Source: Acidobacteriota bacterium
GTDB taxonomy: Bacteria; Acidobacteriota; UBA4820; DSQY01
DNA: 64,000 bases
Direction: 5' to 3'
Assembly (NCBI GenBank): GCA_037444825.1
Contig: JBBILR010000001.1
Location: 11,879 to 75,878, forward strand
The notes beneath the pieces are model-generated. The model saw only the letters and a program-made list of their open reading frames with translations, was not told the origin of the DNA and did no database searches. Every line of letters begins with the position of its first letter. Position 1 is the first letter of the stretch. Made by a program: the position numbers and the translations under genes. Positions 1 through 60,359 of this stretch are shown here, one piece after another.

Positions 1-891
1 GCCGATGACCACCACCCGGGGCAGGCCGTGGCGCTTTCCGGCCTCGAAGTCGTTGGGGTCGTGGGCCGGGGTGATCTTCACCGCGCCGGTCCCGAACTCC
101 CGGTCCACCATGGCGTCGGCCACCACGGGGATCTCCCGGTTCATGAGGGGGAGGACCACCGTCCGTCCCACCAAGGACCGGTACCGCTCGTCCTCCGGGT
201 GGACGGCCACCGCCGTGTCGCCCAGCATGGTCTCCGGCCGGGTGGTGGCCACCGTGACCCCTTCGCCGCCGTCCGGGGAGGGGTAGCGGATGGTCCAGAG
301 CGTCCCGCGGCTCTCGGCGTGTTCCACCTCCAGGTCCGACAGGGCCGTCCCGCAGCGGGGGCACCAGTTGACCATGTACTCGCCGCGGTAGATCAGCCCC
401 TCCCGGTAGAGGTCCACGAAGGCCTTCCGCACCGCCCGGCTGAGGTCGGGGTCCAGCGTGAAGCGGGTGCGGCTCCAGTCGCAGGAGGCCCCCAGCCGCC
501 GGAGCTGGCGCAGGATGGTGTCCCCCTTCTCGCGCCGCCACTCCCAGACCTTCTCCACGAAGGCTTCCCGGCCCAGATCCTCCCTTCGGATTCCTTGCTT
601 TTCCAGCTCCTTGCCCACCACCATCTGGGTGGCGATACCGGCGTGGTCGGTGCCGGGGAGCCACAGGGCGTCGTAGCCCTGCATCCGCCGCCAGCGGATG
701 AGGATGTCCTGCAACGTCACGAACATGGCGTGGCCGGTGTGGAGGGCCCCCGTGACGTTGGGCGGGGGGATGACGATGACGTAGGGCGGCTTGCCCGAAG
801 CGGGGTCGGCCCGGAAGTGGCCCTCCCCCTCCCAAAGGGCGTAGATCCTCTCCTCCACCTCGCCGGGAACGAACTGCTTGGGGATCTCCAT
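1..891 (-). CDS. valS: valyl-tRNA synthetase, N-terminal part (gene continues beyond window start)
   Basis: The minus-strand reading from ATG at 891 gives [21 protein letters not shown]... followed by HIGH-region-like [13 protein letters not shown], typical of class I ValRS. The ORF runs off the window edge, so it is absent from the ORF track. Confidence 0.85.
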
Positions 892-970: not shown

Positions 971-2977
971 TCAGCCGGCTTCCGCTTCCAGCTCCTGGAT
1001 GCGGCGGCGGATGAGCGATTCGGCCAGCTCGGGGATCACCTCCCAGGCGACCTCCCGGACGATCTTGTCCACCTGGGCCTTGACCTCCTCCGCGGCCAGC
1101 GGCGGCAGGCTTCGGCCCACCTCCTCCCGGACGAGGGCGGGGAGGCTCTCCTCCAGGGCTTCCCGGACCAGCGCCGGGGCCTGGGCTTCCAATGTCTGCC
1201 GGAGGACCTGCGGCACCAAGGCCGAAACGGCCGTGGAGACGGCCTCGGGGGTCCGGGCCTCCGCCTCCCGGGCCACGGCGGGGGCCACCAGCCGCTCCGC
1301 CGCCTCCTGGACGGCGGGGCCAACCGACTCCTCGGCGGCCCGCCGGGCGGCGAAGGGAATCTCCTCGGAGAGCCGGCGGCGCACCTCCACCTCGGCGGCC
1401 TCGGCGGCGGCCGATGCGGCCCGCGAGGGCAGAACCTCGGCCAGGGAACGCTCCAGAAGCGCGGGAAGGGCCTCCTCCACGGCCTGCCGGGCGGCGGAGG
1501 GCAGGATCTCCCGGAGGGCCCCGCCCACCGCCGCGGGCACGGCCTCGGCCAACGCGCCGCGGAGGGTTTCCGGAAGCATCTCGTTCAGCCCGCGGGCCAC
1601 CAGACCCGGAACGAGGGTCTCCACCGCCGAACGGATGGAGCCCTCCAGAGCGGGGGCCGGGGCCGCCTCCTCCCGAATGACGGGGAAGGTGCCCGCCGCC
1701 GCCAGGGACTCCTTTTCCTCCTCAGGTTCCGGCGGCGGGACCACGGCCTCCTCCGCGGCTTCAAAGAGAGGGGCTTCCGGGGTGAGGGTTTCCCCGGCGG
1801 GGGCTTCGGAAAGCTCCGGGTAGGCTCCGGTCACCGGCTCCGGCGGAGGGGCGAAGGCCTCCTCGGGGGAGGGCGCGGGCGCCGCCTCGCCAGCGGGGGC
1901 TTCCAGAAAATCGGTCTTGTGGTCCAGGAGGTCGTGGGCCTCCGAGACCATCTCCTGCTGTTCGGTGAGGGCGTGGACGATCTCCACCGTCTCCTGTTCG
2001 GCCGCTGCGGAAACGTCGGGGGCGGCCGGGGCCTGCTCGGCGATGGGGGCCACGGTTTCCAGCTCGGCCTCGAAGGGCTCCTCCACGAAGGGCGGCAGAG
2101 AGGCGGCGACCTCTTCCTTGGGTTCCGGAGTTGCTTCACCCGCTTCGGCGGCGGGCAAGGGGGGCCCCAGGTCCACCGAGGGCTCGGGGGGCGGCACCAC
2201 CTGCTCCAAGGCGGCCTCCGAGACCGGTTCTTCGGTGATGGGGCCGAGGTCCAGGCCCTCGAAGGGTTCCGAAGGAGCGGAGGGCATCTCGGGGGCCGGG
2301 GGAGGAGGGGAGGCGGTGGCGACCTCGGAGGGCCCCGCCGCCGGGGGCTCCAGCGGCTGGAAGACCGTCGTGGCCGGGGGAGGGGCGCCGGTGCCGGAGG
2401 AGGTGGCCGTGTCCTCCAAGATGGGGAGTTCCGGCTCCGGGGGCATGGCGAACTCCGGCTCCCCCGAGGTGAAGGGAGCCTCGGCGGCCTGGGGGGCGGC
2501 GGGGGAGACGGCGGCCGGTTCTTCGGCGGGCGGCTCCTCCATGGTGAACTCCTGGCGGCTGTGGAAGACCTGGACCGGTCCTGCGCCCGCCTCCGGGGCG
2601 AAGAGCATCCGCTTGCGGATCAGCTCCTCCACCTTCTCGACGAGCATCTTGGAGTCGAAGGGCTTGGTGATGGTGAGGTCGGCCCCCGAGGCCCGGGCCT
2701 TCTCCTCGTCGAAGGGCTCGAAGGTCCCGGTGAGGAGGATCACCGGAATGGCGGCGTAGGCGGGGTTCCGCTTGACGAAGGCCGCCACGTCGTAGCCGTT
2801 CATCTCCGGCATGATGACGTCGCAGAGGAGGATGTCGGGGCGGTCCTCCTGGAGCTTCTGGACGGCGAGCTTCCCGTTGGAGACGGAGGTGACCTCGTAG
2901 TCCCCGTCCACGAAGGTGAGTTCCACCACCTTCTGGATGGTGACACTGTCGTCCGCGAGAAGGATCTTCTTCGGCAT
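971..2977 (-). CDS. response regulator: CheY-like receiver plus about 330-aa Pro/Ala/Glu-rich disordered linker plus conserved helical C-terminal repeat domain (RomR-like architecture)
   Basis: N-terminus MPKKILLADDSVTIQKVVELTFVDGDYEVTSVSNGKLAVQKLQEDRPDILLCDVIMPEMNGYDVAAF...TKPFD is a receiver domain. The middle is low-complexity P/A/E. The C-terminus has degenerate repeats (ALPALLERSLAEVLP, SLPALVREEV, IVREVAWEVIPELAESLIRRRIQELE). Confidence 0.8.
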   Translation of the reverse strand: MPKKILLADDSVTIQKVVELTFVDGDYEVTSVSNGKLAVQKLQEDRPDILLCDVIMPEMNGYDVAAFVKRNPAYAAIPVILLTGTFEPFDEEKARASGADLTITKPFDSKMLVEKVEELIRKRMLFAPEAGAGPVQVFHSRQEFTMEEPPAEEPAAVSPAAPQAAEAPFTSGEPEFAMPPEPELPILEDTATSSGTGAPPPATTVFQPLEPPAAGPSEVATASPPPPAPEMPSAPSEPFEGLDLGPITEEPVSEAALEQVVPPPEPSVDLGPPLPAAEAGEATPEPKEEVAASLPPFVEEPFEAELETVAPIAEQAPAAPDVSAAAEQETVEIVHALTEQQEMVSEAHDLLDHKTDFLEAPAGEAAPAPSPEEAFAPPPEPVTGAYPELSEAPAGETLTPEAPLFEAAEEAVVPPPEPEEEKESLAAAGTFPVIREEAAPAPALEGSIRSAVETLVPGLVARGLNEMLPETLRGALAEAVPAAVGGALREILPSAARQAVEEALPALLERSLAEVLPSRAASAAAEAAEVEVRRRLSEEIPFAARRAAEESVGPAVQEAAERLVAPAVAREAEARTPEAVSTAVSALVPQVLRQTLEAQAPALVREALEESLPALVREEVGRSLPPLAAEEVKAQVDKIVREVAWEVIPELAESLIRRRIQELEAEAG

Positions 2978-3005
2978 GGCGGCCCCCTATTCCATCCCAA
3001 GCATT

Positions 3006-3374
3006 TTAACGAAGCCCGCAGGCCCTGTAAAGCCTTTCCACGTCCACGAGGCCCATCCCCTCGTCCACCCCCTCTCCCTGTCCCTCGGGTGGGACGGCGG
3101 AGGTGGCTTGGAGGGCCGCCCCGAGCCCGGGCAGGGCCAAGGGAAGCCCCTCCCGCTCCAGCACCACCAGGAGACGGGGAGGGGCGGTCCTTCCGAAGAA
3201 AAAGGAGGGGTCGGCCACCGGCACCGCCTCCCCCCCCACCACCAGGATCCCCAGGAGCCAGGAGGCCCCGCGGGGAAGGGGCAGGGGGGGCTCGAAGTCC
3301 CGAATCTCCCGCACCGCCTCGGCGGGGATGGCCCAGCGCCCCTCGCCGGTGTCCAGAATCACGACGCCGGGCAT
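3006..3374 (-). CDS. single-domain CheW-like protein (copy 1)
   Basis: MPGVVILDTGEGRWAIPAEAVREI...LPLPRGASWLLGILVVGGEAVPVADP...LLVVLEREGLPLALPGLGA aligns to the two CheW subdomain motifs. The start is fixed by residue count (M197 of the 3006..3962 ORF). It overlaps the upstream gene by 16 nt. Confidence 0.6.
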   Translation of the reverse strand: MPGVVILDTGEGRWAIPAEAVREIRDFEPPLPLPRGASWLLGILVVGGEAVPVADPSFFFGRTAPPRLLVVLEREGLPLALPGLGAALQATSAVPPEGQGEGVDEGMGLVDVERLYRACGLR

Positions 3375-3766
3375 GCCAGGGCCTCCAGGGCCTCGGGGTC
3401 GGCCACGAAGGCGCCCCGCCGCCCGTCCCAGAGAAGGGCCCGGGCCCAGGGGGGGCGCTCGGCGAAGCAGGCGGGAGGCAGGGGGAGGTAGCGCCAGGGG
3501 CGCTGGGTGGGATCGGCCGCGTCCTCGAAGAGCCAGGCCCGGCCCGTGTCCAGGAGCACCAAAATCCCCGGTTCCGGGGGTCCCGCGGGAAATCCCAGAA
3601 AACGCCCCACGTCCAGCGCCGCCGGAAGGTGGTGAGGGAAGTCGGGGGCTCCCCGGTGCAGCACCCGCACGACGCGGGGAAGGGGGAGCGCCACGAGGAG
3701 ACCCCCGGCGGCCTTCGCGAAGAGCCACGGCTCGGCCACTTCCACCTCCCAGGTCCAAGGATACAC
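3359..3766 (-). CDS. single-domain CheW-like protein (copy 2)
   Basis: MYPWTWEVEVAEPWLFAKAAGGLLVALPLPRVVRVL...ILVLLDTGRAWLFEDAA has the same CheW-like pattern as copy 1. It is a different frame with the same orientation. Confidence 0.5.
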   Translation of the reverse strand: MYPWTWEVEVAEPWLFAKAAGGLLVALPLPRVVRVLHRGAPDFPHHLPAALDVGRFLGFPAGPPEPGILVLLDTGRAWLFEDAADPTQRPWRYLPLPPACFAERPPWARALLWDGRRGAFVADPEALEALACPAS

Positions 3767-21261: not shown

Positions 21262-24135
21262 CTAGGACCCGGCTTCGGTGAGGTAGCCGACGGCGGCGTC
21301 CTGCTCCCCGTCCATGACCACCTCCAGCCGAAGGCCCGGCGCCGCCTGGTCCAGGTCCACGACCTTGAGGACCTCCTCCAGGTAGGCGTACTCCGGCAGC
21401 AGGGCGCTCAGGGCGTTGGGGCTCTTCGAGAAGAACTCCTCCCGGAAAACCACCCCCTCGTCGTCCGGGTAGAGGGCGAGGTACCGGATCCGCGATTCCA
21501 CCAGGTCTTGGAAGAAGTGGGTGCCGAAGGAAAGGTCGGGGACGTAGTCCCCCTTGCGGCGGGCCACCTCCACCAGCATGGCGGTGTGGCTGATGTCCGA
21601 GTAGGTGACGCGAACCCCCAGGAGGATGTCCCCCCGGCTGCCCCAGCGGCCCGGCCCGATGAGCACGAAAGAGCGTGGAGGCAGGAGGGCGTTGAGCCGC
21701 CCCACCGCCTCCCCCACGGCCAGCATGTCCGTCTCGGAGGAGAGCCGGGCGTAGGCCGGCCCGTCCACGTACACGACGTAGCGAAGGTCCCGGATCTGCG
21801 CGGTGGTGACGTACTTCTTCGCCGTGAAGAGGACCCGTTCCGGCGGCAGGGACTCGGGGAGGGGGACCCGGACCTCGCTCCCGGCGCTGCTCTGCGGGCG
21901 GCACTGCAGCATGTACAGGTCCTTCCCGTCGTGGGCGAACTCCACGTCCACCGGCGTCCCCATGGCCTTCTGCAGGACCTCCAGGACCCGGCGCATCTGC
22001 TGGAGAAAGGGGGTCCCCTCGAAGAGCCCGGCGAAGGTGATCACGTACTCCGAGGGGGTGAGGGCGAGAAACCGCCCCGCGGGCCTCCGCAGCATTCCGT
22101 CGGAATGGACCGAGACCACCAGCTCCAGCAGGGGGAACTCCTCCCCGGCCTCCTGGAGGAGGGCCTCGAAGGGGACCGACTCGAAGCGGCCCGTCTCCAT
22201 GTTGATGGCGTCCACGAAGCGCTGGGCGTACCGGATGGCCTGCTTCACGTCGGCGTTGACCCTCAGGCCCGGCTGGCCCGGGCTCACCAGCGTCGGGTAG
22301 TCGTCGCCCACCCGGTCCACCGCCCGGGTGCCCAGCCCCGCCACGATGCGGATCACCCCGTCCTCCCGCCGGAGCCGCGGCGACCACCGGAACTCGTTGT
22401 GGCTGAAGGCCACCCCGGCGAAGGCCGGGAGGAAGTAGCGCCCCACCCGTGTCCCCACCACCCGCTGGATGAGGACCCCCATCTCCTCCATGAAATCCAA
22501 AAGGCCCCTCTCCCGCCGGTATTGGATGGGGTCCGGGCCCAGGATGGAGGCGTAGACCTCGGCGATGGCGTCTTCCAGGGCGCCGAGGCGCTCCTCCTCG
22601 GAGCCCTGGTTGGCCAGGAAGAGGCTCCGGTACTTTCCCGAGAAGGCCGTGCCCTCGCTGTCCTCCAGGAGGCTGGACGAGCGGACGATGAGCGGCCCCT
22701 CCCCCAGGTCCTGGAGGGCCACCCGGAGCTGCCGTGAAAGGTCCGGCGGGAAGAAGGAGTGTTTGAAGACCTGCTCCAGGTAGGGGTAGCTCCGGCGCAC
22801 CTCCTGGGGGGGGCTGTACTTGAAGGACTGGGTGTCCTCCAGGGAGTTGTACTTCACGAAGTCGAAGAGGCCGTCGGAGGCGAGGAACCAGGCCTTGGGG
22901 ACGCGGATCCCCTCCAGCAGGGGGTCCCCCTTCCCCTCGGCTCTCAGGATCTGCTCGGCCAGGAGCAACCCCGAGGCCTTCCCGCCCAGCTTGCCCGCGC
23001 ACTTGGGGGGACCCACCACCCGCCTCAGGAGGGCGGCGAAGACGGGGATGTCCATGTACTTTTTGGCGACGGCGATGAAGGGCAGGCGGTCGGTGAGGAA
23101 GCGGCGGGTGAGGGCCACCCGGAGGTTCAGGGCGTCGGAGGGGGAGAGGGCCTCGTCCCCCTGGCGGGAGGCGCGGTCGATCCTCTCCACGATGTCGGCG
23201 ATGTCGGAGAGGGTGAGGTCCCGCTGCTCGGTGGCCAGCGCCAGGAACCCCACCCGGTCCTGCCGGATCCACTTCTTCACCAGGGCGGTGATCTCGTCGT
23301 GGGGCAGGATGACCGGGGCCACGGCCAACAGGTCCTCGAAGACCCCCTCGAAGGCCGAGACGTCCCGCTTGCGCAGGGGCTGGTTGGAGCCCCGGGACTC
23401 CCGCTCCCGCTCGGCGGCGCTGCCTGGGTCGAAGCGCTCGATGAGGCGGTGGATTCCCGGCGCCCCCAGGTTGGACAGGTGGTTCATGAACTTCCTTAGG
23501 AGCCGCTTCCAGAGGTTGACGTCGGTCTCCCTCAAAAGGTCCAGGATGACCTGCCACTCCGGGCGGGCGGCCTGCCCCGCACCGGGGCCGCCGGGCGGCG
23601 CCTCGGCCATGCGGGCCACCTTCAGGGCCGCCACCCGAAGGAGCTGTTTTTCCTCCAGGAGGAAGGGCCGGTCCTTCCGGAGGGTCTCCGGCAGGGAGAG
23701 GTAGGCCGCCTCCAGGGAGCCGTACCCCCCGGAGGAGAGGGGGATGGGCTCCCGCAGGTTCCACGGCGTCTCCTGGAAGTCCGGCGGGGCGAAGACCTCC
23801 CGCCCCAGGGTCAGCCGGACGCGGAGCCGCTCCGGAAACCGAAAGCCCGAGGGGAGCAGGTCCACCACCGCCCTGGCGGCGGCCCGAGGATCCTGCGGGG
23901 GCTCGTCGGTCACCGCCGAGAGCCGGCTGAGGCACAGAAGCTCCTTGCTTCCCGCCACCGCCTCGGGAAGCGCCTTCCGATCGTCCCTGTCCGCTCTGGC
24001 CAACGTATTCCTCCTCCATCCATCATGCCACGGCCCGGTGGCGGAAGGAAAAGCCCCCCTTGCCCCGGCCGCGGCGGGGGTTCCGCCGGCGGGAGGGGTG
24101 AGGTAGGATGCCTTCAGAAGCGAAAGCGGCGTCAT
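21262..24135 (-). CDS. large multidomain protein with central PEP/pyruvate-binding (PPDK_N-type ATP-grasp) domain; function unknown; start uncertain
   Basis: KCAGKLGGKASGLLLAEQ plus a downstream ATP-grasp-like region matches the PEP synthase / PPDK N-terminal domain family. About 450 aa N-terminal and about 250 aa C-terminal have no recognisable signature. The first in-frame ATG (24135) faces the divergent gene's start at 24154, so the true start may be a GTG/TTG further downstream. Confidence 0.6.
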   Translation of the reverse strand: MTPLSLLKASYLTPPAGGTPAAAGARGAFPSATGPWHDGWRRNTLARADRDDRKALPEAVAGSKELLCLSRLSAVTDEPPQDPRAAARAVVDLLPSGFRFPERLRVRLTLGREVFAPPDFQETPWNLREPIPLSSGGYGSLEAAYLSLPETLRKDRPFLLEEKQLLRVAALKVARMAEAPPGGPGAGQAARPEWQVILDLLRETDVNLWKRLLRKFMNHLSNLGAPGIHRLIERFDPGSAAERERESRGSNQPLRKRDVSAFEGVFEDLLAVAPVILPHDEITALVKKWIRQDRVGFLALATEQRDLTLSDIADIVERIDRASRQGDEALSPSDALNLRVALTRRFLTDRLPFIAVAKKYMDIPVFAALLRRVVGPPKCAGKLGGKASGLLLAEQILRAEGKGDPLLEGIRVPKAWFLASDGLFDFVKYNSLEDTQSFKYSPPQEVRRSYPYLEQVFKHSFFPPDLSRQLRVALQDLGEGPLIVRSSSLLEDSEGTAFSGKYRSLFLANQGSEEERLGALEDAIAEVYASILGPDPIQYRRERGLLDFMEEMGVLIQRVVGTRVGRYFLPAFAGVAFSHNEFRWSPRLRREDGVIRIVAGLGTRAVDRVGDDYPTLVSPGQPGLRVNADVKQAIRYAQRFVDAINMETGRFESVPFEALLQEAGEEFPLLELVVSVHSDGMLRRPAGRFLALTPSEYVITFAGLFEGTPFLQQMRRVLEVLQKAMGTPVDVEFAHDGKDLYMLQCRPQSSAGSEVRVPLPESLPPERVLFTAKKYVTTAQIRDLRYVVYVDGPAYARLSSETDMLAVGEAVGRLNALLPPRSFVLIGPGRWGSRGDILLGVRVTYSDISHTAMLVEVARRKGDYVPDLSFGTHFFQDLVESRIRYLALYPDDEGVVFREEFFSKSPNALSALLPEYAYLEEVLKVVDLDQAAPGLRLEVVMDGEQDAAVGYLTEAGS

Positions 24136-24153
24136 CCTGCCGGGGAGGTTCCC

Positions 24154-24777
24154 ATGGGGGCGGTGGAGCCGGAAGGGGAAAGCCGGGGGTTCTGGGGAAA
24201 GGTCTGGGAAAGGTTTTGGTGGGTCTTCGCCCTCGCTCTCGTCGGCGGCGTGGCGGGGGTGTACAAGCTTTTCGGCGGCGTGGCGCTCCTGAAGCTCTGG
24301 GCCTCCCTCTTCGCCGGCCTGGGCGCGGCGGTCATGGTCTACGGCGGGCGGGCTTGGAGGCTCGCCTCCCGAAGCCCGGAGTGGTTCCCGGCGCAGGCGC
24401 GGGTGCTCCGTTCCGAGGTGAGGACCGAAAGGAACTCCTCCTTCAGCCGCGACGGGATCAACCCCAGCTACCAGACCGTCTCCCACTACCCGGAGGTGGA
24501 GTACGAGTACGAGGTGGAGGGAGAGAAGAGAAGGTCCGATAGGGTCCTCCTCGTGCGGGTGAACTACTCCGCCGAGGAGGCGGCCGCCACGGTGGCGAAG
24601 TATCCCACAGGAGCCGCCGTTACCGCCTGGTACGACCCCCGGGATCCCGACCGGGTGGTCTTGGAGCCGGGTCTTCGGGGGGCGAGGTCCAAGTACGCCA
24701 TCCCGCTGCTCGTCGGCCTCGTTTTCATGCTCTTTGGCATTTCCACGTGGGTGGTGCTGGCGTTGCTGGGGCGTTGA
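24154..24777 (+). CDS. DUF3592-family membrane protein
   Basis: MGAVEPEGESRGFWGKVWERFWWVFALALVGG...RVNYSAEEAAATVAKYPTGAAVTAWYDPRDPDRVVLEP...LLVGLVFMLFGISTWVV has two TM segments flanking a DUF3592-like soluble domain. GGGAGG lies 6 nt upstream. Confidence 0.6.
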   Translation: MGAVEPEGESRGFWGKVWERFWWVFALALVGGVAGVYKLFGGVALLKLWASLFAGLGAAVMVYGGRAWRLASRSPEWFPAQARVLRSEVRTERNSSFSRDGINPSYQTVSHYPEVEYEYEVEGEKRRSDRVLLVRVNYSAEEAAATVAKYPTGAAVTAWYDPRDPDRVVLEPGLRGARSKYAIPLLVGLVFMLFGISTWVVLALLGR

Positions 24778-24793
24778 GGCCCCGGGCGGCCCG

Positions 24794-26314
24794 TCACCGA
24801 GCCCCCGTTTTTTCCTCGGCGAAAACCTCCGCCTGGAAGGTGGAGAGCCGCGCCCCCCGCTTCCAGCACTCCGCCTCCAATCCGGCCTTTTCGCAGAGGC
24901 GGCCGAGCAGCTCCTCCCGGTTCCACCCCTGCTCGGGGGCCACCTGGGGGAGAAAGACCGCGCTTCGCGCCCCCTTTTCGAGGAGCACGCCGTCGCGGCC
25001 CACCACCACCGCCCCCGGTCCCGAAACGGGCGCGAAGGGGGTGAGGGCGGAAATCTCGATCTCCAAGGACGAAAGTTCCCAGCTCTTCACCGGGGGAAAG
25101 CGGGGGTCGTGGAGGGCCGCCTGAACGGCCATGCGGGCCACGGTGAGGGCGAGGGGGGTGTCGGGGACCATCCGGCCGATGCATCCGCGAAGTTCCCCCT
25201 TTTCCTTGAGGGTGACGAAGGCGCCCCGGGGGGCGCGCAGGGCGGGGGAGTCCGGCCGCGGCAGGGGGACCGTGTCCGTGAGAAAAAGCCGCTCCAGCAC
25301 CCGGCGGGCCAGGGCGAGGAGGGCCCTACGCTCGGCGGCGGAGAGGGGGGGCGCCTGCTCCGGGGGGGCGGGGCGGGAGAGGGCCGAAAGGTCGGGCGGC
25401 CCCTCCTCGGCGGTGAAGACGACGGCGCCGTACCCCACCACCCGGTCCTCCTCTCCGAAGACCGTGTCCCCGGAGTTGGCGTAGGACACCACCACTCCCC
25501 TCCGGGCCCCCAGGGCCCTCAGGGCGCTGAGCAGGACCAGGAGGGGGCCCCGCCCGCAGGCGCAGGTGGCGAGTGACGGCCTTCCCCGCCGCTCCTCCCG
25601 CTCGGTGACCGTCCGGAAGAGGACGGGGTCCAGGGCCGCCGCGGCCTCCAGCGTCTTCCGGTCGGTCTCCACCGCCTCGCCGTACGGCGGGTAGTGGGAG
25701 AGGTCCGACGAGGCCACGAGCAGCGCCTTCCGGCCGCGCAGCTTCTCCGCCAAAACCTCGCCGAGGCGGCGGCAGAGGGCGCCGTCGTCGGTCCCCACGA
25801 CGGCGGTGAGAACCCTTGCCCCCGGGAAAAGGACCTGGACGAAGGGGAGGGGGACCTCCTCCGAATGCTCCCGGCGGTGGGCCTCGGGGCGGTAGGCGAA
25901 GGCGGGGTCGGCCGACCGAAGGGCCCGGGCCAGCCCTTCGTCGGCCGGGATCGTCCCCAGCGGGGTGCGGTAGGCCCGTCCCCCGAAGACCGAGGCTCCC
26001 GGAAAGGGGTCCACGGTGTGGTTCGTGGCCAGGATCACCACCGTGTCGTACTCCTGGCCCTGGGCCTGGCGAAAGGCGTCGGCCAGGATCTGGCCGGAAA
26101 AGACGTACCCGGCGTGGGGAACCAGGAGGCCCAGGGGCCTCGGGCCGCGCGGGGGACGGGCCTCCTCCAGAAAGGCCCGGACGGCCTTTTCGAGGCGGAC
26201 GCCGTCTTCAGGGTAGAACGAGCCGGCCGCGGCGGCCTCGCGCACGGCTTCCTCCCCCGCCGGGACCAGGAGGCAGGGCACGAGAAGGGCCGCCCACCAG
26301 GCCGCGCCCCTCAT
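24794..26314 (-). CDS. AmmeMemoRadiSam system fusion protein: Memo-like (protein B) N-terminal domain plus AMMECR1 (protein A) C-terminal domain, with N-terminal Sec-type signal peptide
   Basis: MRGAAWWAALLVPCLLVPAGEEA looks like a signal peptide. Then GSFYPEDGVRLEKAVRAFLEE...LLVPHAGYVFSGQILADAF is Memo. The C-terminal half ERRALLALARRVLER...GAFVTLKEKGELRGCIGRM is AMMECR1. The ATG overlaps the amrS stop (ATGA at 26311-26314). Confidence 0.8.
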   Translation of the reverse strand: MRGAAWWAALLVPCLLVPAGEEAVREAAAAGSFYPEDGVRLEKAVRAFLEEARPPRGPRPLGLLVPHAGYVFSGQILADAFRQAQGQEYDTVVILATNHTVDPFPGASVFGGRAYRTPLGTIPADEGLARALRSADPAFAYRPEAHRREHSEEVPLPFVQVLFPGARVLTAVVGTDDGALCRRLGEVLAEKLRGRKALLVASSDLSHYPPYGEAVETDRKTLEAAAALDPVLFRTVTEREERRGRPSLATCACGRGPLLVLLSALRALGARRGVVVSYANSGDTVFGEEDRVVGYGAVVFTAEEGPPDLSALSRPAPPEQAPPLSAAERRALLALARRVLERLFLTDTVPLPRPDSPALRAPRGAFVTLKEKGELRGCIGRMVPDTPLALTVARMAVQAALHDPRFPPVKSWELSSLEIEISALTPFAPVSGPGAVVVGRDGVLLEKGARSAVFLPQVAPEQGWNREELLGRLCEKAGLEAECWKRGARLSTFQAEVFAEEKTGAR

Positions 26315-37947: not shown

Positions 37948-39096
37948 ATGGAGCGGGACCTTTCCTGGGTCGAACTCTGGGACGCCTTCGGAGGCGGGGT
38001 CTACCTCTTTTTCTGCCTCATCCACCTCGACCTCTACCTGCGGCGGAGGGACCGCACGGCCCACCTCTTCCTGGCCCTCGCCAGCGCGGGGGCCCTTGTG
38101 GTGGACGGGACGGGATTGGTCCTGCGCCGCCTCGGCCCCCCAGCCCCCTCCTTCCTCGTCTCTCTCAACTTCCTGGGTGTCTCCGTGGCCACGGCGACCC
38201 TCTTCGAGCTGGTGGCGGTCCTGGGCCGCCGGTCGAACGGAAGAGCCTCCCGGGCGGTGGAGGGCCTGCTCCTTCTCCTCCCGGCGGCCCTGCCCTTTTT
38301 CCCCTCCCTGGAGCCTCCCTATTTCCTTCTGGTCTTCGGCGTCCTGTTGGCCTCCACCGTCACGGCCTTCCAGGCGGCCTTCCGGGGGGACCGCGAATCG
38401 GGGATGGTGGCCAAGGGCTTCGTGGTCCTCATGGCCTGCCTCGCGGCGGACGTTCTCAAGGAGCTGAGGCTCCTTCCGGTGCCGGGGGGGCTCCCCATCC
38501 TGGGCTTCATCGTCCTCTTTCTCGCCTCGGCCCGCTCCCTCAACGACCGCTTCGGAAGGGAGGAAGAGGCCTCCCGCACCGATTCCCTCACGGGGCTCAA
38601 GAACCGCCGCGGCTTTCTGGAAGCCTGCGACGGGGCCCTGCAGCGGAGCCGCCGGTCGGGCAAGCCGTTGTCGGTGGTCCTGGCCGACCTGGACCACTTC
38701 AAGGAGGTCAACGACGTCCTGGGCCACGGGGCGGGGGACGAGGTTCTCCAGAAGGTGGCCCGTGAGTTTCGCTCTTCCGTGCGGGAGCAGGACACGGTGG
38801 GCCGCTGGGGAGGCGAGGAGTTCGTCTTCCTCCTCCCCGACACCGAGCTCGCCGGCGCCCTTCGGGTGGCGGAGAACCTCCGCCGGAGGGTGGCGGACCT
38901 GGCCATCGAGGCGGGACGCGGGCGGCTGACCGTCTCGCTGGGGGCGGCGCAGTACCGGCCGGGAACGGACGTCGAGGAGTCCATCTCCCGGGCCGACCGG
39001 GCCCTCTACCGGGCCAAGGAGGGGGGCCGGAACCGTTCGGAGGCGGACGAGTCTTTCCCGGCGGCGCCGAAGGGCCTTTCCGGCCGCGGGTCCTGA
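37948..39096 (+). CDS. membrane-anchored diguanylate cyclase (GGDEF domain)
   Basis: The N-terminus has about 6 TM segments. The C-terminus is RTDSLTGLKNRRGF...VVLADLDHFKEVND..GHGAGDEVL...GRWGGEEFVFLLP with GGEEF and an RxxD I-site (RRSRRSGKP). Confidence 0.85.
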   Translation: MERDLSWVELWDAFGGGVYLFFCLIHLDLYLRRRDRTAHLFLALASAGALVVDGTGLVLRRLGPPAPSFLVSLNFLGVSVATATLFELVAVLGRRSNGRASRAVEGLLLLLPAALPFFPSLEPPYFLLVFGVLLASTVTAFQAAFRGDRESGMVAKGFVVLMACLAADVLKELRLLPVPGGLPILGFIVLFLASARSLNDRFGREEEASRTDSLTGLKNRRGFLEACDGALQRSRRSGKPLSVVLADLDHFKEVNDVLGHGAGDEVLQKVAREFRSSVREQDTVGRWGGEEFVFLLPDTELAGALRVAENLRRRVADLAIEAGRGRLTVSLGAAQYRPGTDVEESISRADRALYRAKEGGRNRSEADESFPAAPKGLSGRGS

Positions 39097-44497: not shown

Positions 44498-45927
44498 TTC
44501 CGGACCCTCCCGGCCTCCCGGCGGTCCAGAAGGGCCACGAAGAAGCCGTCCCAGGAAGTCCGGTGGGGAAGGAGGTAACCTCGGCCCTCCCCGGCGGGGG
44601 TGAGGAGGGTGGCGAGCTCCGGTGGGGCCTCCAAAGGGCGGGGCCGGAAGTCCGGGTGGCCGGAGAGAAAGGCCTCCACCACCTCCACCGTCTCCTCCGG
44701 TTCCAGGGAGCAGACGGAGTAGAGAAGAGAGCCCCCGGGCCGCACCGCCTCCGCGGCCCGCTCCAGGAGGTTCACCTGGCGGAGGTGGTGGCGCCCCAGG
44801 TGCTCCTCCGCCACCTGCCAGCGGATTTCGGGGTTCTTTCGCAGGGTGCCCAGGGAGGAGCAGGGGGCGTCCAAGAGCACGGCGTCGAAGGGGGCGGCGA
44901 AGGGGAGGGGGGCGGCGGCGTCCACGGCGGCCACGCGGAGGGTCTTTAAGGAGAGACGCCGAAAGTTCTCGGCCATCTGGCGCAGGCGCCGCCGGTTTCG
45001 GTCGGCGGCCACGAGGAACAACTCCCGGCCTGCCCGAAGGGCCAGCCGGACGCTCTTGCCGCCGGGGGCGGCGCAGAGGTCCAGCACCCGGTCCCCCTTC
45101 TTCACGGGAAGCAGGAGGGCGGGAACCTGGGAGGCCCCGTCCATGACGTAGAAGAGGCCCTGTCGGAAGGCCTCGGAGCGGGAGGGGTCCCCCGAAAGGA
45201 CCCGGTGGGTGAAGGGCAGGACGGGGTCCCGCTCCAGCCGGAAGCCCTCCCGAGCGAGGAGGGCCAGTCCGGCGGCCTCCGCCGGCGCCCCGAGGAAGAG
45301 CAGGGAGAGAACGGCCGGCTCCGAAAGAGCCCGGAGGAGGGGCTCCGCCTCCTCGCCGAAGCGCTCCTCGTACCGCTCCACGAGCCAGAGGGGCATGCCG
45401 AGCCGGAGGGCCGCCCCTTCGCTCCCGGCGAAGGTCAGGGGCGCCTCCAGCGCCTCCTCGCGGTGCTCCGAAAGGCTCCTCAGGACGCCGTTGACGAAGC
45501 CTCCGGCCCCAGGGTTCAGCGATTTGGCGGCCTTGACGCACTCGTGGACGGCGGCGTAGGCGGGGACGCGGTCCAGGAAGAGGATCTGGTAGGCGCCCAC
45601 CCGCAGGATCTGGAGCAGTTCGGGCTGGACCCGGCCCATCTCCCGGTCGGTGTGGGCCTCCAGGGCCCGGTCCAGGTGGGGAAGGCGGCGGACCACCCCC
45701 GAAACCAGCTCCCGGAGCAGGGCCCGGTCGTCCTCTCGGGCCAGGCGTTTCTGCTCCCGTTGGACCACCCCCTTGAGGGACTGGTTGCCGGAAAGGACCT
45801 CCTCCAGGAGTCTGGCCGCCAGGGCTCGGAGGTTGGGTTTCTCCTCGGGGGCGCGCCGGGCCCGCGTGGCGGGGAGAGCCCCCGTCCTTGCCTTTCCTCG
45901 TGGCGGGGCGGGCCGGGAGGGCTTCAG
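44494..45927 (-). CDS. rsmB: 16S rRNA (cytosine-C5)-methyltransferase RsmB/Sun; 5' end unresolved
   Basis: The NusB-like N-terminal part is KPNLRALAARLLEEVLSGNQSLK. The MTase core is DLCAAPGGKS...DAPCSSLGTLRKNPE. There is no ATG/GTG/TTG near the conserved start. The only in-frame ATG is at 46032 (a 65-aa P/R-rich extension overlapping fmt), so the given end is approximate. Confidence 0.7.
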   Translation of the reverse strand: MKPSRPAPPRGKARTGALPATRARRAPEEKPNLRALAARLLEEVLSGNQSLKGVVQREQKRLAREDDRALLRELVSGVVRRLPHLDRALEAHTDREMGRVQPELLQILRVGAYQILFLDRVPAYAAVHECVKAAKSLNPGAGGFVNGVLRSLSEHREEALEAPLTFAGSEGAALRLGMPLWLVERYEERFGEEAEPLLRALSEPAVLSLLFLGAPAEAAGLALLAREGFRLERDPVLPFTHRVLSGDPSRSEAFRQGLFYVMDGASQVPALLLPVKKGDRVLDLCAAPGGKSVRLALRAGRELFLVAADRNRRRLRQMAENFRRLSLKTLRVAAVDAAAPLPFAAPFDAVLLDAPCSSLGTLRKNPEIRWQVAEEHLGRHHLRQVNLLERAAEAVRPGGSLLYSVCSLEPEETVEVVEAFLSGHPDFRPRPLEAPPELATLLTPAGEGRGYLLPHRTSWDGFFVALLDRREAGRVRK

Positions 45928-46874
45928 AGGCCCAGCCGTGTCCCCGCGGGGAGGGGAAACCCCCGGACGAGGTCGGCGGAGGAGAGGGCGCGGCGGCCCT
46001 CCCTTTGGAGGCTCGTGAGCAGGAGGCATCGGCCGTCTCCACAGGCCACCGTCACCGGCGGCCCCAGTACCACTTCTCCGGGTGCCGCGCCCGGGGGCGC
46101 GGCACCCGCCACCTTCGCGGCGAGAACCTTGATCCGTTCGCCCCTTACGGAGGAGTGGGCGCCAGGCCAGGGGTCCATGGCCCGAACCTGGCGCTCCAGC
46201 CTCTCCGCCGGCTCCTCGAAGGGGAGGCGGCCGTCCTCGGGGCGGATCCGGGGGGCCAGCGTGGCCCGGGCGGGGTCTTGGGGAACGGGGCGGAGGGTGC
46301 CGGCGGCCAAAGCGGGGAGGCTCTCCGCGAGAAGCCGGCCCCCCAGCTCCGCCAGGAGCGGGGTGAGGGTGCCGGTGGTGGCCCCCTCCGGAAGGGGGAT
46401 GGCCCGCTGGGCGTACACGGGGCCCGTGTCCAGCCCCTCCTCCATCCGCATGAGGGAAACCCCCGTCTCCGCGTCGCCTTCCCAGATGGCGTAGGCCACG
46501 GGGGCGGCTCCCCGGTGGCGGGGGAGGAGCGAGGCGTGGACGTTGACGCACCCCAAGGGGGGAATCTCCAGCACCGCCGGGGGGAGGATCTTTCCGTACG
46601 CGGCCACCACCACGAGATCCGGCTTCAGCTCGCGGAGGAGGTCCACCACGGCGGGATCCTTGAGGGTGGCGGGCTGGTGGACCTCCAGGCCCGCCCGGAG
46701 GGCCTCCTCCTTCACCGGCGGGGGCAGGACGGCGCGGCCCCTCCCCTGGGGCTTGTCGGGCTGGGTGAAGACCGCCACGGGGCGCACCCCCGCCTCCAGG
46801 AGGGCCCGGAGGCTCGCCCGGCCGAAGGCCGGGGTCCCCATGAAAACTACCCTTCGGGGTAGGGGTTGTCCCAT
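45924..46874 (-). CDS. fmt: methionyl-tRNA formyltransferase
   Basis: MGQPLPRRVVFMGTPAFGRASLRALLEAG...HASLLPRHRGAAP. The start at M78 of the track ORF aligns with the E. coli Fmt N-terminus. GGGAGA is upstream. Confidence 0.9.
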   Translation of the reverse strand: MGQPLPRRVVFMGTPAFGRASLRALLEAGVRPVAVFTQPDKPQGRGRAVLPPPVKEEALRAGLEVHQPATLKDPAVVDLLRELKPDLVVVAAYGKILPPAVLEIPPLGCVNVHASLLPRHRGAAPVAYAIWEGDAETGVSLMRMEEGLDTGPVYAQRAIPLPEGATTGTLTPLLAELGGRLLAESLPALAAGTLRPVPQDPARATLAPRIRPEDGRLPFEEPAERLERQVRAMDPWPGAHSSVRGERIKVLAAKVAGAAPPGAAPGEVVLGPPVTVACGDGRCLLLTSLQREGRRALSSADLVRGFPLPAGTRLGL

Positions 46875-47380
46875 TCTCCCTCCCGGATCATCTTCCGGAT
46901 CTTGCGCTTGAGGAGGTCCCTCCGAATGGGGCTGACCCGGTCCAGGATGAGCACGCCGTCGAGGTGGTCGATCTCGTGGCAGAGGGCGTGGGAGAGGTAG
47001 GCGTTGCCTTCCAGTTCGAAGGGCCTTCCCTCCCGGTCCAGGGCCCGGACCTTCACCCGGGCCGGCCTCTTGATCTTCTCGAAGATCTTGGGGAAGGAGA
47101 GGCACCCCTCCTCGCGCTCCGAGACGCCCTCCTGCTCGACGATCTCGGGGTTCACGAAGAAGGTCAGGTTCGTCTCGCCCCCCTCGAGGCCCAAATCCAC
47201 CACCATCACCCGGAGGGGAACCCCCACCTGGTTGGCGGCCAGCCCCGCCCCTCCGGCGTGTTTCATGGTCTCCACCATGTCGTCCATGAGGGTCCGGACC
47301 TCGTCGGTGATTTCCGTGACGGGCCGGGCCTTTTCGCGGAGGACGGGGGAGCCGAAGAGTTCAACTTTGCGTATCGCCAT
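46847..47380 (-). CDS. def: peptide deformylase
   Basis: MAIRKVELFGSPVLREKARPV...EGCLSFP...HEIDHLDG. Confidence 0.95.
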   Translation of the reverse strand: MAIRKVELFGSPVLREKARPVTEITDEVRTLMDDMVETMKHAGGAGLAANQVGVPLRVMVVDLGLEGGETNLTFFVNPEIVEQEGVSEREEGCLSFPKIFEKIKRPARVKVRALDREGRPFELEGNAYLSHALCHEIDHLDGVLILDRVSPIRRDLLKRKIRKMIREGEWDNPYPEG

Positions 47381-48407
47381 CGTTACCGGGTTCCTTTCCG
47401 AGGAGCACTTCCAGGGTCTTGCGGACCCGGGCTTCCAGCACCGCCTCCAGCCGTTCCCGGAGCGCCGGGGCCTCCTCCATCAGCCGGGAGGCGGAGGCGC
47501 CGTCCAACTCGAGGACCAGCCCCGGTTGAACCGCCGTCACGGTGGCGGTGCGGGGGACCTTCTGGAGGAACCCCACCTCGCCGATGACGTCGCCCCGCTG
47601 GAGCCTCCCCAGGAGGACCTCCCCCTCCTCGAAGGAGCCCCGGGCCTCGAAGAGGCCCTGGGCCACCAGAAACAGCGAGTCCCCCGTCTCCCCTTCCCGG
47701 AGGAGGACCTCCCCCGCGGAAATGGAACGCTCGCGGAGCAAGGCGGCCAAGCGGCCCAGCTCGTCGGCGCGCAGATCGGGCAGGAGGCCGTGGAGGGTGG
47801 CGAAGACGCCCTCCCCGGCGGAGGGGTAGTCCCCCGTCTCCCCCCAGGGTTCGGCGGGCGGCGGAGGCGCCGGTGCCGGTGGCACGCTCTCCACGGTTTC
47901 GGGCGCCTCCAAAGAGGAATCCAGCAGGGGTTCGTCCTCCACGGGAGGCGGGGGCGCCGGTGCCGGGCCCCTTTCCAGGGCCGGCTCCTCGGCGTCGAGG
48001 CTTTCGGCGGGAGGCGGGGCCGGCGCCTCTTCCATTGGCCCCTCCTCCGAGAGGTCGAAGGAAAAGCTCTGGCCGGGGTCCCTCGTCTCGGCGCCCGATT
48101 CCAGCTCCTGGAGCCGGGCGGCCACCTCCGGGTCCCCGGGAAGGAGGCGCAGGGCCTTCTTGAGGAGGGCGGAGGCCTGGGGCCGCTGGCCGCTCCTCAA
48201 GGCCGAGTCGGCCTCCTCCCGGTAAACGCGGGCGGCCTCCTCCTTCCGGCCCATTCCCTCCCACGCTTCGGCCAACCGGAGCCGGAGCCCCAGGTCGTCG
48301 GGGTTCTGCTTGAGCCTCCGCGCAAGGATCTTGGCCGCCTCCTCGAAGCGTCCCTCCCGCAGGAGCTGGACGGGGTCGGACTTGTCGGATCTGGAAAAGA
48401 GGGCCAT
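47361..48407 (-). CDS. TPR-like N-terminal region plus acidic linker plus C-terminal cyclic-nucleotide-binding (cNMP) domain protein
   Basis: MALFSRSDKSDPVQLLREGRFEEAAKILARRL are TPR-like helices. The C-terminus GEVLLREGETGDSLFLVAQGLFEA...GDVIGEVGFL is a cNMP-binding beta-roll. Confidence 0.7.
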   Translation of the reverse strand: MALFSRSDKSDPVQLLREGRFEEAAKILARRLKQNPDDLGLRLRLAEAWEGMGRKEEAARVYREEADSALRSGQRPQASALLKKALRLLPGDPEVAARLQELESGAETRDPGQSFSFDLSEEGPMEEAPAPPPAESLDAEEPALERGPAPAPPPPVEDEPLLDSSLEAPETVESVPPAPAPPPPAEPWGETGDYPSAGEGVFATLHGLLPDLRADELGRLAALLRERSISAGEVLLREGETGDSLFLVAQGLFEARGSFEEGEVLLGRLQRGDVIGEVGFLQKVPRTATVTAVQPGLVLELDGASASRLMEEAPALRERLEAVLEARVRKTLEVLLGKEPGNDGDTQS

Positions 48408-48531
48408 GGGCAGCCTCCGTGGAGCAAGCATAGTCCAAGGCCCTCGCCGGCGGCAAGGAGAGGGGCATGCCTTGCGGAAGGTTCGCTTCGGCTCTATGCT
48501 GGGCCCGGCGGGGGGCGTGAGGAAGGTGTCC

Positions 48532-49425
48532 ATGCCGGAGTTCTATCCCAACAACTTCGGGGGGCTCCCCCCCGAGCGGTCGGCCCTGGAGAAGAGCCGT
48601 TACGTGGTGCTTCCGCTCCCGTACGAGGCCACCACCTCCTACGGCAAGGGGACCAAGCTGGGCCCCCGGGCCATCGTGGAGGCCTCCCGGAACATGGAGC
48701 TCTACGACGAGGAGGTGGGCTTCGAACCTTGCGAGGCGGGGATCCACACCACCGAAGACCTCCACTTCCCCGACGCCTCCCCCGCGGCCATGGTGGAGAC
48801 GGTGCGGGAGGCGGTATCCCACTACCTGGCCCTGGGCAAGTTCGTCCTCTGCCTCGGGGGGGAGCACAGCCTCACCTACCCCGCCTTCGACGCCCACCTC
48901 AGGCGCCACGGGGACATCGGGATCGTTCAGATCGACGCCCACGCGGACCTCCGGGACGCCTACGAGGGGACCCCCTACAACCACGCCTGCGTGATGCGGC
49001 GGATCGTGCCGTTGAGCGCCGGCACGGTTCAGGTGGGGATCCGCTCCCTGAGCGCCGAGGAGGCGGAGTACCTGAGGGCCGAGGGGACCTGGCCCGTCCT
49101 CTGGGCGAGGGAATGCGCCGAAAACGACCGATGGATGGACCGCGCCCTCGAGGCCCTGCCCCCCAAGGTGTACCTCACCGTGGACCTGGACGGCTTCGAC
49201 CCTTCCCTGGTGCCCTGCACCGGCACGCCGGAGCCGGGGGGGCTCCAGTGGTACCCCGTGATCCGCTTCCTCCGCCGTCTGGTCAAGGAGCGGGAGGTGG
49301 TGGGGGCCGACCTCATGGAGCTGGCCCCCGACCGGGTGCACTTCGCCGCCGATTTCCTCGCCTCCCGGCTCGCCTACAAGATCGTCGCCTACCTGGAGGA
49401 GAAGAGACGCCATGCGCAGGGATGA
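48532..49425 (+). CDS. speB: ureohydrolase family protein, agmatinase-like
   Basis: MPEFYPNNFGGLPPE...LCLGGEHSLTYPAF...IVQIDAHADLRD...TVDLDGFDPSLVPCTGTPEPGGL has the Mn-binding His/Asp motifs of the arginase/agmatinase fold. Confidence 0.8.
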   Translation: MPEFYPNNFGGLPPERSALEKSRYVVLPLPYEATTSYGKGTKLGPRAIVEASRNMELYDEEVGFEPCEAGIHTTEDLHFPDASPAAMVETVREAVSHYLALGKFVLCLGGEHSLTYPAFDAHLRRHGDIGIVQIDAHADLRDAYEGTPYNHACVMRRIVPLSAGTVQVGIRSLSAEEAEYLRAEGTWPVLWARECAENDRWMDRALEALPPKVYLTVDLDGFDPSLVPCTGTPEPGGLQWYPVIRFLRRLVKEREVVGADLMELAPDRVHFAADFLASRLAYKIVAYLEEKRRHAQG

Positions 49426-50445: not shown

Positions 50446-50448
50446 GCG

Positions 50449-52035: not shown

Positions 52036-52400
52036 GGCGGGCCGCCCCCGGTCACCCGGCCGATGACGGCCAGGAGGTCTCCCATGGAAAAGGGCTTGAG
52101 GAGGTACGCGGAGGCTCCCGCCTCCACGGCCGCCCGCCGGTCCTCGTCCAGGGTCTTGGCGGAGACGGCCACCACGGGGGGCAGCGGACGGCCCAGGAGG
52201 CGGAGGGCCTTCAGGACCTCCAGTCCGTCGAAGTCCGGCATGCGGATGTCCAGAAGGATGAGGTCGGGAGCGAAGCGCCCCACCTCCGCGAGGACCTCCC
52301 GGCCGTCGCCGGTGCAGAGGACTTCGTGGCCTTCCCCCTCCAGCACCGAGGTGAGGAGTTCCCGGATATCGGCGTTGTCGTCGCAGACGAGGATGCGCAT
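51993..52400 (-). CDS. stand-alone CheY-like response regulator receiver
   Basis: MRILVCDDNADIRELLTSVLEGEGHEVLCTGDGREVLAEVGRFAPDLILLDIRMPDFDGLEVLKAL. GGGGGGAGG is upstream. It overlaps the 3' end of the convergent GT39 gene by about 43 nt. Confidence 0.8.
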   Translation of the reverse strand: MRILVCDDNADIRELLTSVLEGEGHEVLCTGDGREVLAEVGRFAPDLILLDIRMPDFDGLEVLKALRLLGRPLPPVVAVSAKTLDEDRRAAVEAGASAYLLKPFSMGDLLAVIGRVTGGGPPQGAGGAPGEASSR

Positions 52401-52541
52401 CCGGTACCTCCCCCCGAATCCCCGACGCCAAGATAGGCCTCCGGCGGTTCTTCCGTCAAGGCCGGCGGAAGCACGGCCTCCGAAGACCTGGAGAAACCCG
52501 GGGAGCATATGGATTCGGCGGAGAAAGGCCCCACCCGGCGC

Positions 52542-60000: not shown

Positions 60001-60359
60001 GGCTCTTGCTCCAACATGCGGGCGATCTCCTCCAGGTCCTTCCGGGAGAGCTTCCGGTCCTCCACGAGGCCGTAGACGAGCCGGAGGGCCGACCCCCCGA
60101 AGGCCTTTCGGAGGAACTCGTCCAGCATGGCGGAGAGGGTCTTCTGGCGGCTCTGGCGAGGGAGGAAGCGGAAGGCCCGCCCCTCCTTGCGGCGCCTCAG
60201 GTGGCCCTTTTCCACCAGGATGTTGAGCACGGTGAGGACGGTGGTGTAGGCCAGGGGCCGGGTGGGGTGGAGGGCCTCGTGGACCTCCCGCGCCGTGGCC
60301 CCCCCGGCGTCCCAGAGGACCTGCATGACGGCGAGCTCCAGGTCGGTGAGCGGTTTCAT
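59997..60359 (-). CDS. BlaI/MecI/CopY-family winged-helix transcriptional repressor
   Basis: MKPLTDLELAVMQVLWDAGGATAREVHEAL...YTTVLTVLNILVEKGHL. The ATGA overlap with the blaR1-like start is at 59997-60000. Confidence 0.85.
   Translation of the reverse strand: MKPLTDLELAVMQVLWDAGGATAREVHEALHPTRPLAYTTVLTVLNILVEKGHLRRRKEGRAFRFLPRQSRQKTLSAMLDEFLRKAFGGSALRLVYGLVEDRKLSRKDLEEIARMLEQEP

Follow-up and report, generated by a model that had tools for sequence, protein, structure and literature searches.

A probable romR locus in an acidobacterium, with a split pair of CheW-fold genes upstream and a repeat-extended RomR C-terminus

What are two small CheW-like genes doing beside a receiver protein with an exceptionally long disordered linker, and what kind of system do they form next to the gene for valyl-tRNA synthetase (valS)? 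The question is raised by the minus strand of a 64,000-nucleotide stretch of DNA from an Acidobacteriota bacterium (assembly GCA_037444825.1, contig JBBILR010000001.1, positions 11,879 to 75,878 of the forward strand), which was analyzed in its entirety and is referred to here as the window. The genes are two small open reading frames (ORFs), ORF-A and ORF-B, and a gene for a protein of 668 amino acids (aa) with a receiver (REC) domain. We conclude that this is very probably the romR locus of an acidobacterium of the class Thermoanaerobaculia, made up of an orthologue of the RomR protein of Myxococcus xanthus, a counterpart of the RomR-linked double-CheW protein MXAN4462 that is split in two, and the neighbour valS. 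The 668-aa protein is placed as a RomR orthologue because it combines a receiver carrying D53, a disordered linker, and the C-terminal signature known as RomR-C.

The three frames are real genes and not frames produced by base composition. The window has a GC content of about 70 %, and GC at third codon positions (GC3) reaches 0.85-0.90 in all three. Comparison with the close relative L088 gave ratios of nonsynonymous to synonymous substitution rates (dN/dS) of 0.18 for ORF-A, 0.42 for ORF-B, 0.31 for the REC protein, whose last 38 residues taken alone give 0.12, and 0.10 for valS. With values below 0.45, ORF-A, ORF-B and the REC gene are therefore all under purifying selection, and the small ORFs are also conserved at the protein level in 12 genomes. 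An initial annotation, made from the sequence without database searches, had proposed three co-directional minus-strand genes with a 16-nucleotide (nt) overlap and a 29-nt gap. Conservation and dN/dS bear out the genes, and the overlap between ORF-A and ORF-B is indeed 16 nt; the gap between ORF-B and the REC gene, however, measures 28 nt. The start of ORF-A also had to be revised, from GTG at 3766 (135 aa) to GTG at 3739 (126 aa), because all 18 database homologues begin with MAE at the position of the latter codon, this codon follows a Shine-Dalgarno sequence (GGAGGTG), and the gene has been called with the same length in the close relatives L088 and L089. Coordinates are collected in Table 1.

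Table 1. Features of the putative romR locus, followed by other signaling-type genes of the window (positions are those of the window).
Feature	Positions	Strand	Remarks
ORF-A, 126 aa	3359..3739	-	divergent; predicted CheW/CheA-P5-like fold; placed like the first CheW domain of MXAN4462-type proteins
ORF-B, 122 aa	3006..3374	-	single-domain CheW-like; corresponds to the second CheW domain or gene of other romR loci
REC protein (probable RomR), 668 aa	971..2977	-	REC, linker and RomR-C
RomR REC domain, aa 1-125	2603..2977	-	PF00072
RomR linker, aa 126-455	1613..2602	-	disordered, Pro/Ala/Glu-rich
12-residue repeat array, aa 456-659	1001..1612	-	17 units, predicted helical
RomR-C core, aa 636-668, VDKIVREVAWEVIPELAESLIRRRIQELEAEAG	974..1072	-	W645, P649 and E653 invariant
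valS 5' part (valyl-tRNA synthetase)	1..891	-	from the translation; gene runs off the window
sigma-70-like promoter match TTTACA-17-TAAAAT	3003..3031	-	spans the 3' end of ORF-B; consensus match only
stand-alone receiver-domain protein	51993-52541	-	no link to the romR locus found
membrane GGDEF protein	37948-39096	+	no link to the romR locus found
TPR and cNMP-binding protein	47361-48542	-	no link to the romR locus found
VWA-FHA protein	61783-63057	-	no link to the romR locus found

RomR is defined by a REC domain, a non-conserved and unstructured Pro-rich linker, and an alpha-helical, Glu-rich RomR-C with invariant Trp and Pro residues, and homologues have been reported in Acidobacteria (Keilberg 2012, PMC3441718). 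The REC domain of the 668-aa protein matches PF00072 at residues 5-116 with 77 bits and is modeled by AlphaFold2 with a predicted local distance difference test score (pLDDT) of about 85-92. The acid-pocket residues D9 and D10 are in place, as are T83, K105 and the phospho-acceptor D53; in a 17-sequence alignment D9, D10, D53 and K105 are invariant and T83 is conserved in at least 90 % of the sequences. D53 is also the phospho-acceptor of M. xanthus RomR. Furthermore, the REC motifs TIQKVVEL and TGTFEP[FY]D are common to all proteins that bear RomR-C. A sequence search of the PDB with the REC domain returned only generic response regulators and no deposited RomR REC, and an exact look-up of the 668-aa protein in sequence records found no entry.

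The linker that follows, about 330 residues long, is composed of 19 % Pro, 19 % Ala and 18 % Glu, so that the receiver and the Pro/Ala/Glu spacer described in the initial annotation both stand. Its pLDDT lies below 50 (residues 125-440) except in a conserved helix, HALTEQQEMVSEAHDLLD, at residues 336-357 (nt 1907-1972, minus strand), where it rises to 77. Across the family the linker can be aligned only at short motifs. QVFHSRQEFT, directly after the REC domain and within the linker (nt 2530-2590, minus strand), is predicted to form two short strands and is followed by VDLGP, both being part of the consensus of the long-form family, and GAEDWG occurs in the linker of many homologues. These conserved linker motifs could be docking motifs.

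The third element is RomR-C. A full HMMER scan of 1.84 billion representative sequences with the C-terminal region recovered 57 proteins, of which one set (620-705 aa) has the same overall architecture as the 668-aa protein; many shorter REC proteins (319-445 aa) have only the last ~40 residues in common with it, always at the C-terminus. Residues A644, W645, E646, P649, A652 and E653 are invariant in the 17-sequence alignment. The C-terminal region is thus conserved across homologues, as the initial annotation had anticipated, and with its invariant Trp and Pro it upholds the RomR-like architecture that had been proposed. Glu makes up 21 % of the region, and the C-terminal 226 residues are predicted to be helical (residues 442-667, pLDDT ~85). 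In M. xanthus RomR, helix 371-420 is the binding site for MglC; binding requires W394, and the interface includes E390, K391 and E402 (2025, PMC12719032). The mutagenic primers printed in that study decode to ..REVIE390K391IAW394EVV.., to be compared with KIVREVAW645EVIP649ELAE653 in the window protein. The spacing from Trp to Pro (+4) and from Trp to Glu (+8) is identical in the two proteins. The reading P398-Q-L-A-E402 requires one base to be assumed missing from the printed primer, but the residue numbering fits and the exact string IAWEVVPQLAE is present in a family member, P0018. RomR-C peptide strings had no match in literature text. RomR-C also occurs in database proteins that lack a REC domain (P0018, of 227 aa, P0023, P0024, P0048 and others); P0018 has two tandem motifs (IAWEVVPQLAE...IAWEVVPEL), and several proteins of 70-160 aa may be stand-alone RomR-C units or fragments from short contigs.

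Most of the C-terminal helical region of the window protein (residues 456-659) is an array of 17 units of exactly 12 residues with the consensus [VL]P-A-L-V-R-x-A-L-E-E-x, in which Pro occupies position 2 in 13 of the units. Identity autocorrelation has peaks of 0.29, 0.30 and 0.24 at lags of 12, 24 and 36 residues, over a background of about 0.10. The RomR-C core itself consists of the final two units, VDKIVREVAWEV and IPELAESLIRRR, so that its invariant Pro falls into the register of the array. Enrichment of Pro in this phase was observed in all long homologues (P0001-P0012) and is missing from most short RomR forms, with weak enrichment in two of them (P0030 and P0039). No tandem repeat was found at the DNA level beneath the array, which is therefore old. 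The array extends the RomR-C helix in a lineage-specific way and is probably a rod or an oligomerization module, a reasonable guess given that isolated M. xanthus RomR-C oligomerizes (PMC12719032).

The surroundings of the gene match those of its namesake. In M. xanthus, romR (MXAN4461) is flanked upstream by MXAN4462, described as having 'two CheW domains', and downstream by MXAN4460, a Val-tRNA synthetase-like gene (Leonardy et al. 2007, Fig. 1A, PMC2034494). The window reproduces this locus, except that two overlapping ORFs take the place of the double-CheW gene. The initial annotation had held that the pairing of a RomR-like protein with CheW adaptors was undescribed, a claim that the 2007 order MXAN4462-romR-MXAN4460 overturns: the locus is real but its gene order is not new. 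The two RomR proteins also have in common the receiver with D53, the long, non-conserved, Pro-rich disordered linker and the Glu-rich C-terminal helix AWEV[VI]P..AE, and both genes have CheW-domain coding sequence upstream and valS downstream. They differ in host (an acidobacterium versus M. xanthus), in length (668 versus 420 aa), in the extent of the C-terminal helical part (about 226 aa, with the 17-unit array, versus about 50 aa), and in the residues at four and three positions before the Trp (R-E versus E-K). As for MXAN4462, the likeness, which is drawn from its description, consists of two CheW-fold domains immediately upstream of and co-directional with romR; the difference is that in the window the domains are separate, overlapping ORFs, the first of which has diverged beyond recognition by Pfam. 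MXAN4462 itself is mentioned in the searchable literature only by Leonardy et al. (2007), as 'unpublished', and literature combining RomR with CheW-like terms yielded nothing beyond that paper. A paper on the Geobacter Esn system, which matched a search for CheW, response regulator and proline-rich, proved irrelevant.

Other genomes show the same neighborhood in several states. We scanned one genome per species of the GTDB with the REC protein, which gave more than 556 relatives, and surveyed the loci of the best 80 by tblastn and iterated searches with hidden Markov models (HMMs). These 80 are all Acidobacteriota, mostly Thermoanaerobaculia. ORF-A and ORF-B lie immediately upstream of the REC gene in 12 of the 80 loci (L001-L012), with valS downstream in all 11 of these that have usable sequence (L001 ends within the REC gene). 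Two loci (L069 and L076) hold ORF-B and valS, six hold valS only, and 60 hold neither CheW nor valS. Overall, ValS that is 63-83 % identical is encoded downstream of romR in 19 of the 80. The near-identical metagenomic contigs L088 and L089 repeat the order of the window, from a divergent pyruvate:ferredoxin oxidoreductase (PFOR) gene, which in the window begins at 4014, through ORF-A, ORF-B and the REC protein to valS. Their gene calls are 126, 122 (CheW), 668/671 and 884 aa, the last of which carries tRNA-synt_1 and Val_tRNA-synt_C domains in L088. Two further metagenomic loci bear on the split of the CheW gene: L082 encodes CheW (129 aa), CheW (170 aa), RomR (416 aa), ValS, nadC, birA and coaX, and L083 a fused 299-aa CheW protein, RomR (335 aa), ValS and the same three genes. 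Both fused and split versions thus occur at other romR loci, and ORF-A occupies the position of the first, Pfam-positive CheW gene of L082.

Several features of these neighborhoods lie beside the CheW-romR-valS order. The full block of the second lineage (L082 and L083) runs acyl-CoA dehydrogenase, methylmalonyl-CoA mutase, B12-binding subunit, CheW, romR, valS, nadC, birA and coaX, and rpoN and hpf precede it in L083 and L086. In L085-L087, RomR follows methylmalonyl-CoA mutase and B12-binding genes, and the downstream gene is unannotated and cut by the contig end. L084, with a GC content of 36 %, has neither CheW nor valS. The majority of Thermoanaerobaculia loci (L013-L068; for example L022, L031 and L067) have RomR beside iPGM, a GDPD-family gene and a cobalamin adenosyltransferase, with neither CheW nor valS within 6 kb of the RomR homologue.

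The two upstream genes differ in how readily they can be assigned. The initial annotation had taken them as two paralogous CheW-like proteins of about 125-135 aa, and we tested both against the CheW family. ORF-B is a CheW by sequence. It matches PF01584 with 38.4 bits (cut-off 23.5), and a profile built from 14 sequences matches solved CheW structures (3ja6_A, 1k0s_A and 4jpb_W) at E values of about 4e-13, the best being 3ja6_A (3.8e-13), with profile positions 3-122 aligned to residues 5-133 of the CheW chain. T. maritima CheW is matched over its full length (E 3.8e-13). The second CheW of L082 is also matched by the HMM of ORF-B (1e-22), as is the C-terminal half of the fused protein of L083 (9e-17). 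In place of the canonical CheW 'LRG' motif ORF-B has VVGGE, without a conserved Arg.

ORF-A had no match in Pfam or NCBIfam as a single sequence, and its 12-sequence profile had no sequence match in the PDB. A profile search reached only 18 acidobacterial hypothetical proteins, with no fused double-CheW protein among them, and across the 12 genomes and these 18 database proteins identity falls to 18-27 %. Similarity between ORF-A and ORF-B is not significant either (BLASTP E 0.16; hhalign profile probability 4.8 %). However, an AlphaFold2 model of ORF-A built from a 19-sequence alignment is confident (pLDDT 86.7, predicted template modeling score 0.80), and a Foldseek comparison with the PDB placed CheA-P5 or CheW in all of the top 12 positions, with probabilities of 0.99-1.00 and template modeling scores, normalized to the query, of 0.55-0.65. 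The model therefore supports a CheW/P5 fold of two intertwined five-stranded beta-barrels for ORF-A. Consequently, the CheW-like character proposed for both proteins is retained, for ORF-B by sequence and for ORF-A by predicted fold, whereas their paralogy is not demonstrable by sequence and only the predicted fold links them. All attempts to establish by sequence either that paralogy or a link between ORF-A and the first CheW elsewhere failed.

Three other explanations deserve attention. The genes could constitute a generic chemotaxis output module, in which a CheY-like regulator with a long tail and two CheW adaptors serve a remote Che pathway and have no connection to MglA polarity. CheW proteins usually serve as adaptors in arrays, many families of response regulators give similar scores with the REC domain, and the window contains no mgl genes. 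Nevertheless, we consider such a module unlikely, since the C-terminal motif is family-specific and matches the mapped MglC-binding helix including its critical Trp, the whole locus is syntenic with that of M. xanthus, and the family-specific motifs TIQKVVEL and TGTFEPFD appear in the REC domains of all RomR-C bearers. It could also be argued that ORF-A is not CheW-like at all, and is instead a spurious frame of high-GC DNA or an unrelated small beta-protein encoded before the real CheW gene. The failure of every sequence comparison, whether with Pfam, NCBIfam and the PDB (even with the 12-sequence profile), with the ORF-B profile, or with the first CheW of L082 and L083, speaks for this. We judge it very unlikely, given that ORF-A is kept in 12 genomes and 18 database proteins and has a dN/dS of 0.18, that its confident model finds only CheA-P5 and CheW among its 12 best PDB matches, and that it sits where L082 has a Pfam-positive CheW gene.

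The remaining explanation would tie the module functionally to valS, for example as a regulator of the expression or activity of the synthetase. No feature of the locus is in fact more conserved than the adjacency of romR and valS, which is seen in M. xanthus, in L082 and L083 and, whether or not CheW genes are present, at 19 of the 80 loci. The initial annotation had the genes 'feeding into valS'; what stands of this is the conserved adjacency, and only that, given the 79 nt that separate the valS start (891) from the stop of the REC gene and the promoter-like site ahead of romR. This sigma-70-like match lies 26 nt 5' of the romR start and agrees with the consensus at 10 of 12 positions; the region has three such sites, compared with an expectation of 0.0 from shuffled sequences. 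Because of its location just upstream, romR may have its own promoter and may not depend on the CheW genes for its transcription. No RNA genes came to light when the locus and the entire window were scanned with Rfam and for tRNAs, and the lack of an Rfam match in the 79-nt gap therefore rules out a T-box or other leader RNA ahead of valS. Moreover, valS is not a neighbor of most Thermoanaerobaculia RomR homologues (60 of the 80 loci), the known function of RomR is unrelated to translation, and common descent alone can keep a gene next to a housekeeping gene. A functional tie to valS thus appears extremely improbable.

The identification of the locus as romR with a split MXAN4462 counterpart has to be weighed against several observations that count against it. 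The CheW pair is absent beside the RomR homologue in 66 of the 80 loci, and L085-L087 are likewise without CheW; since it is missing from most acidobacterial romR loci, the pair is not obligatory for RomR. The RomR-C match to M. xanthus comprises about 13 primer-decoded residues together with the one-base assumption. The HMM of ORF-A gave no significant match to the first CheW of L082 or to the first half of the L083 fusion, from which it is evident that the first CheW domain evolves fast. There is no experimental link between MXAN4462 and RomR. Finally, the 64-kb window contains no mglA, mglB, mglC, romX, cheA or methyl-accepting chemotaxis protein (MCP) genes, which agrees with the initial annotation insofar as it saw no CheA or MCP partner; gaps in the GC3-based gene map were checked for hidden mglA or mglB, and none was found.

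If the protein is a RomR orthologue, homology with M. xanthus suggests how it would work. It would reside at the cell poles by means of its disordered linker and C-terminal helix. The receiver, with D53, would act as a phosphorylatable input and as the RomX-binding module that holds MglA-GTP, and the Trp-containing C-terminal helix would recruit the Roadblock-type MglC/MglB complex, a GTPase-activating protein (GAP). The combined effect of these modules would be to establish front-rear polarity for motility by type IV pili or by gliding. The role of the upstream pair is more speculative: ORF-A and ORF-B may form a P5/CheW-like heteropair through which the RomR receiver is connected with a kinase or a chemosensory array, in which case the CheW pair and the RomR REC domain would in effect amount to a CheV made of separate polypeptides. 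Like CheV, they would bring together a CheW-fold adaptor and a phosphorylatable receiver, although CheV does so in one chain. A comparable analogy may be drawn with the CheA-P5/CheW pairs of chemosensory rings, as the ORF-A model is P5-like and ORF-B is CheW-like, as in the pseudo-dimer of those rings; here, however, there is no CheA or MCP nearby, and ORF-B has not conserved the Arg of 'LRG'. FrzB of the M. xanthus Frz system is also a divergent CheW-like protein in reversal and polarity circuitry, but its gene belongs to the frz operon, together with those for an MCP and CheA, whereas ORF-A and ORF-B are encoded with romR.

These analogies allow a bolder proposal, which we put forward tentatively and regard as rather doubtful. 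The CheW-fold pair would be an ancient and dedicated partner of RomR, retained from Myxococcota to Acidobacteriota, that docks the receiver onto an array or kinase as a P5-like/CheW-like heterodimer, and RomR-C would have been amplified into a repeat rod.

The rest of the window is mostly housekeeping, with glnA, a cytochrome, acyl-CoA dehydrogenase, thiG, class II ribonucleotide reductase and carAB, and further with a MacAB-like ABC system, ackA-pta, def, PBP1 and others. In the gaps of the gene map lie the genes for a GGDEF protein and a putative class II aminoacyl-tRNA synthetase, along with a BlaI/BlaR-TonB pair. From the translations alone, the BlaI-like repressor (58714-60359, minus strand) is followed by a BlaR1/M56-like membrane protein with an apparent TonB-C-like C-terminus. 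A 1274-aa protein (21262-25086, minus strand) has a single Pfam match, PPDK_N, at residues 699-1072, and two ORFs of about 520 aa (44950-46494 and 50446-52035, both plus strand) have a strong coding signal and no Pfam match.

Apart from the CheW pair and the repeat array, the locus is unremarkable as an orthologue of a known system, and it extends RomR to Thermoanaerobaculia. Beyond what has been published, it adds the synteny across phyla around an uncharacterized CheW partner and, in the long forms, the 17-unit array ending in RomR-C. Also of interest is the split of the CheW gene, whose first domain is highly divergent. Workers on Myxococcus polarity still debate the route by which Frz signals reach RomR and whether RomR is phosphorylated at all. 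A CheW-fold pair stands beside romR in at least two phyla, in fused and in split forms, and is under purifying selection; because it has been kept there, MXAN4462 and its homologues are obvious candidates for the missing link. If the bolder proposal is true, the CheW pair would be the missing physical connection between Frz-type signaling and the MglA polarity switch, and the 17-unit rod could provide multivalent or length-tuned polar scaffolding. The repeat-expanded RomR-C could in turn inform how the C-terminal helix oligomerizes and binds MglC.

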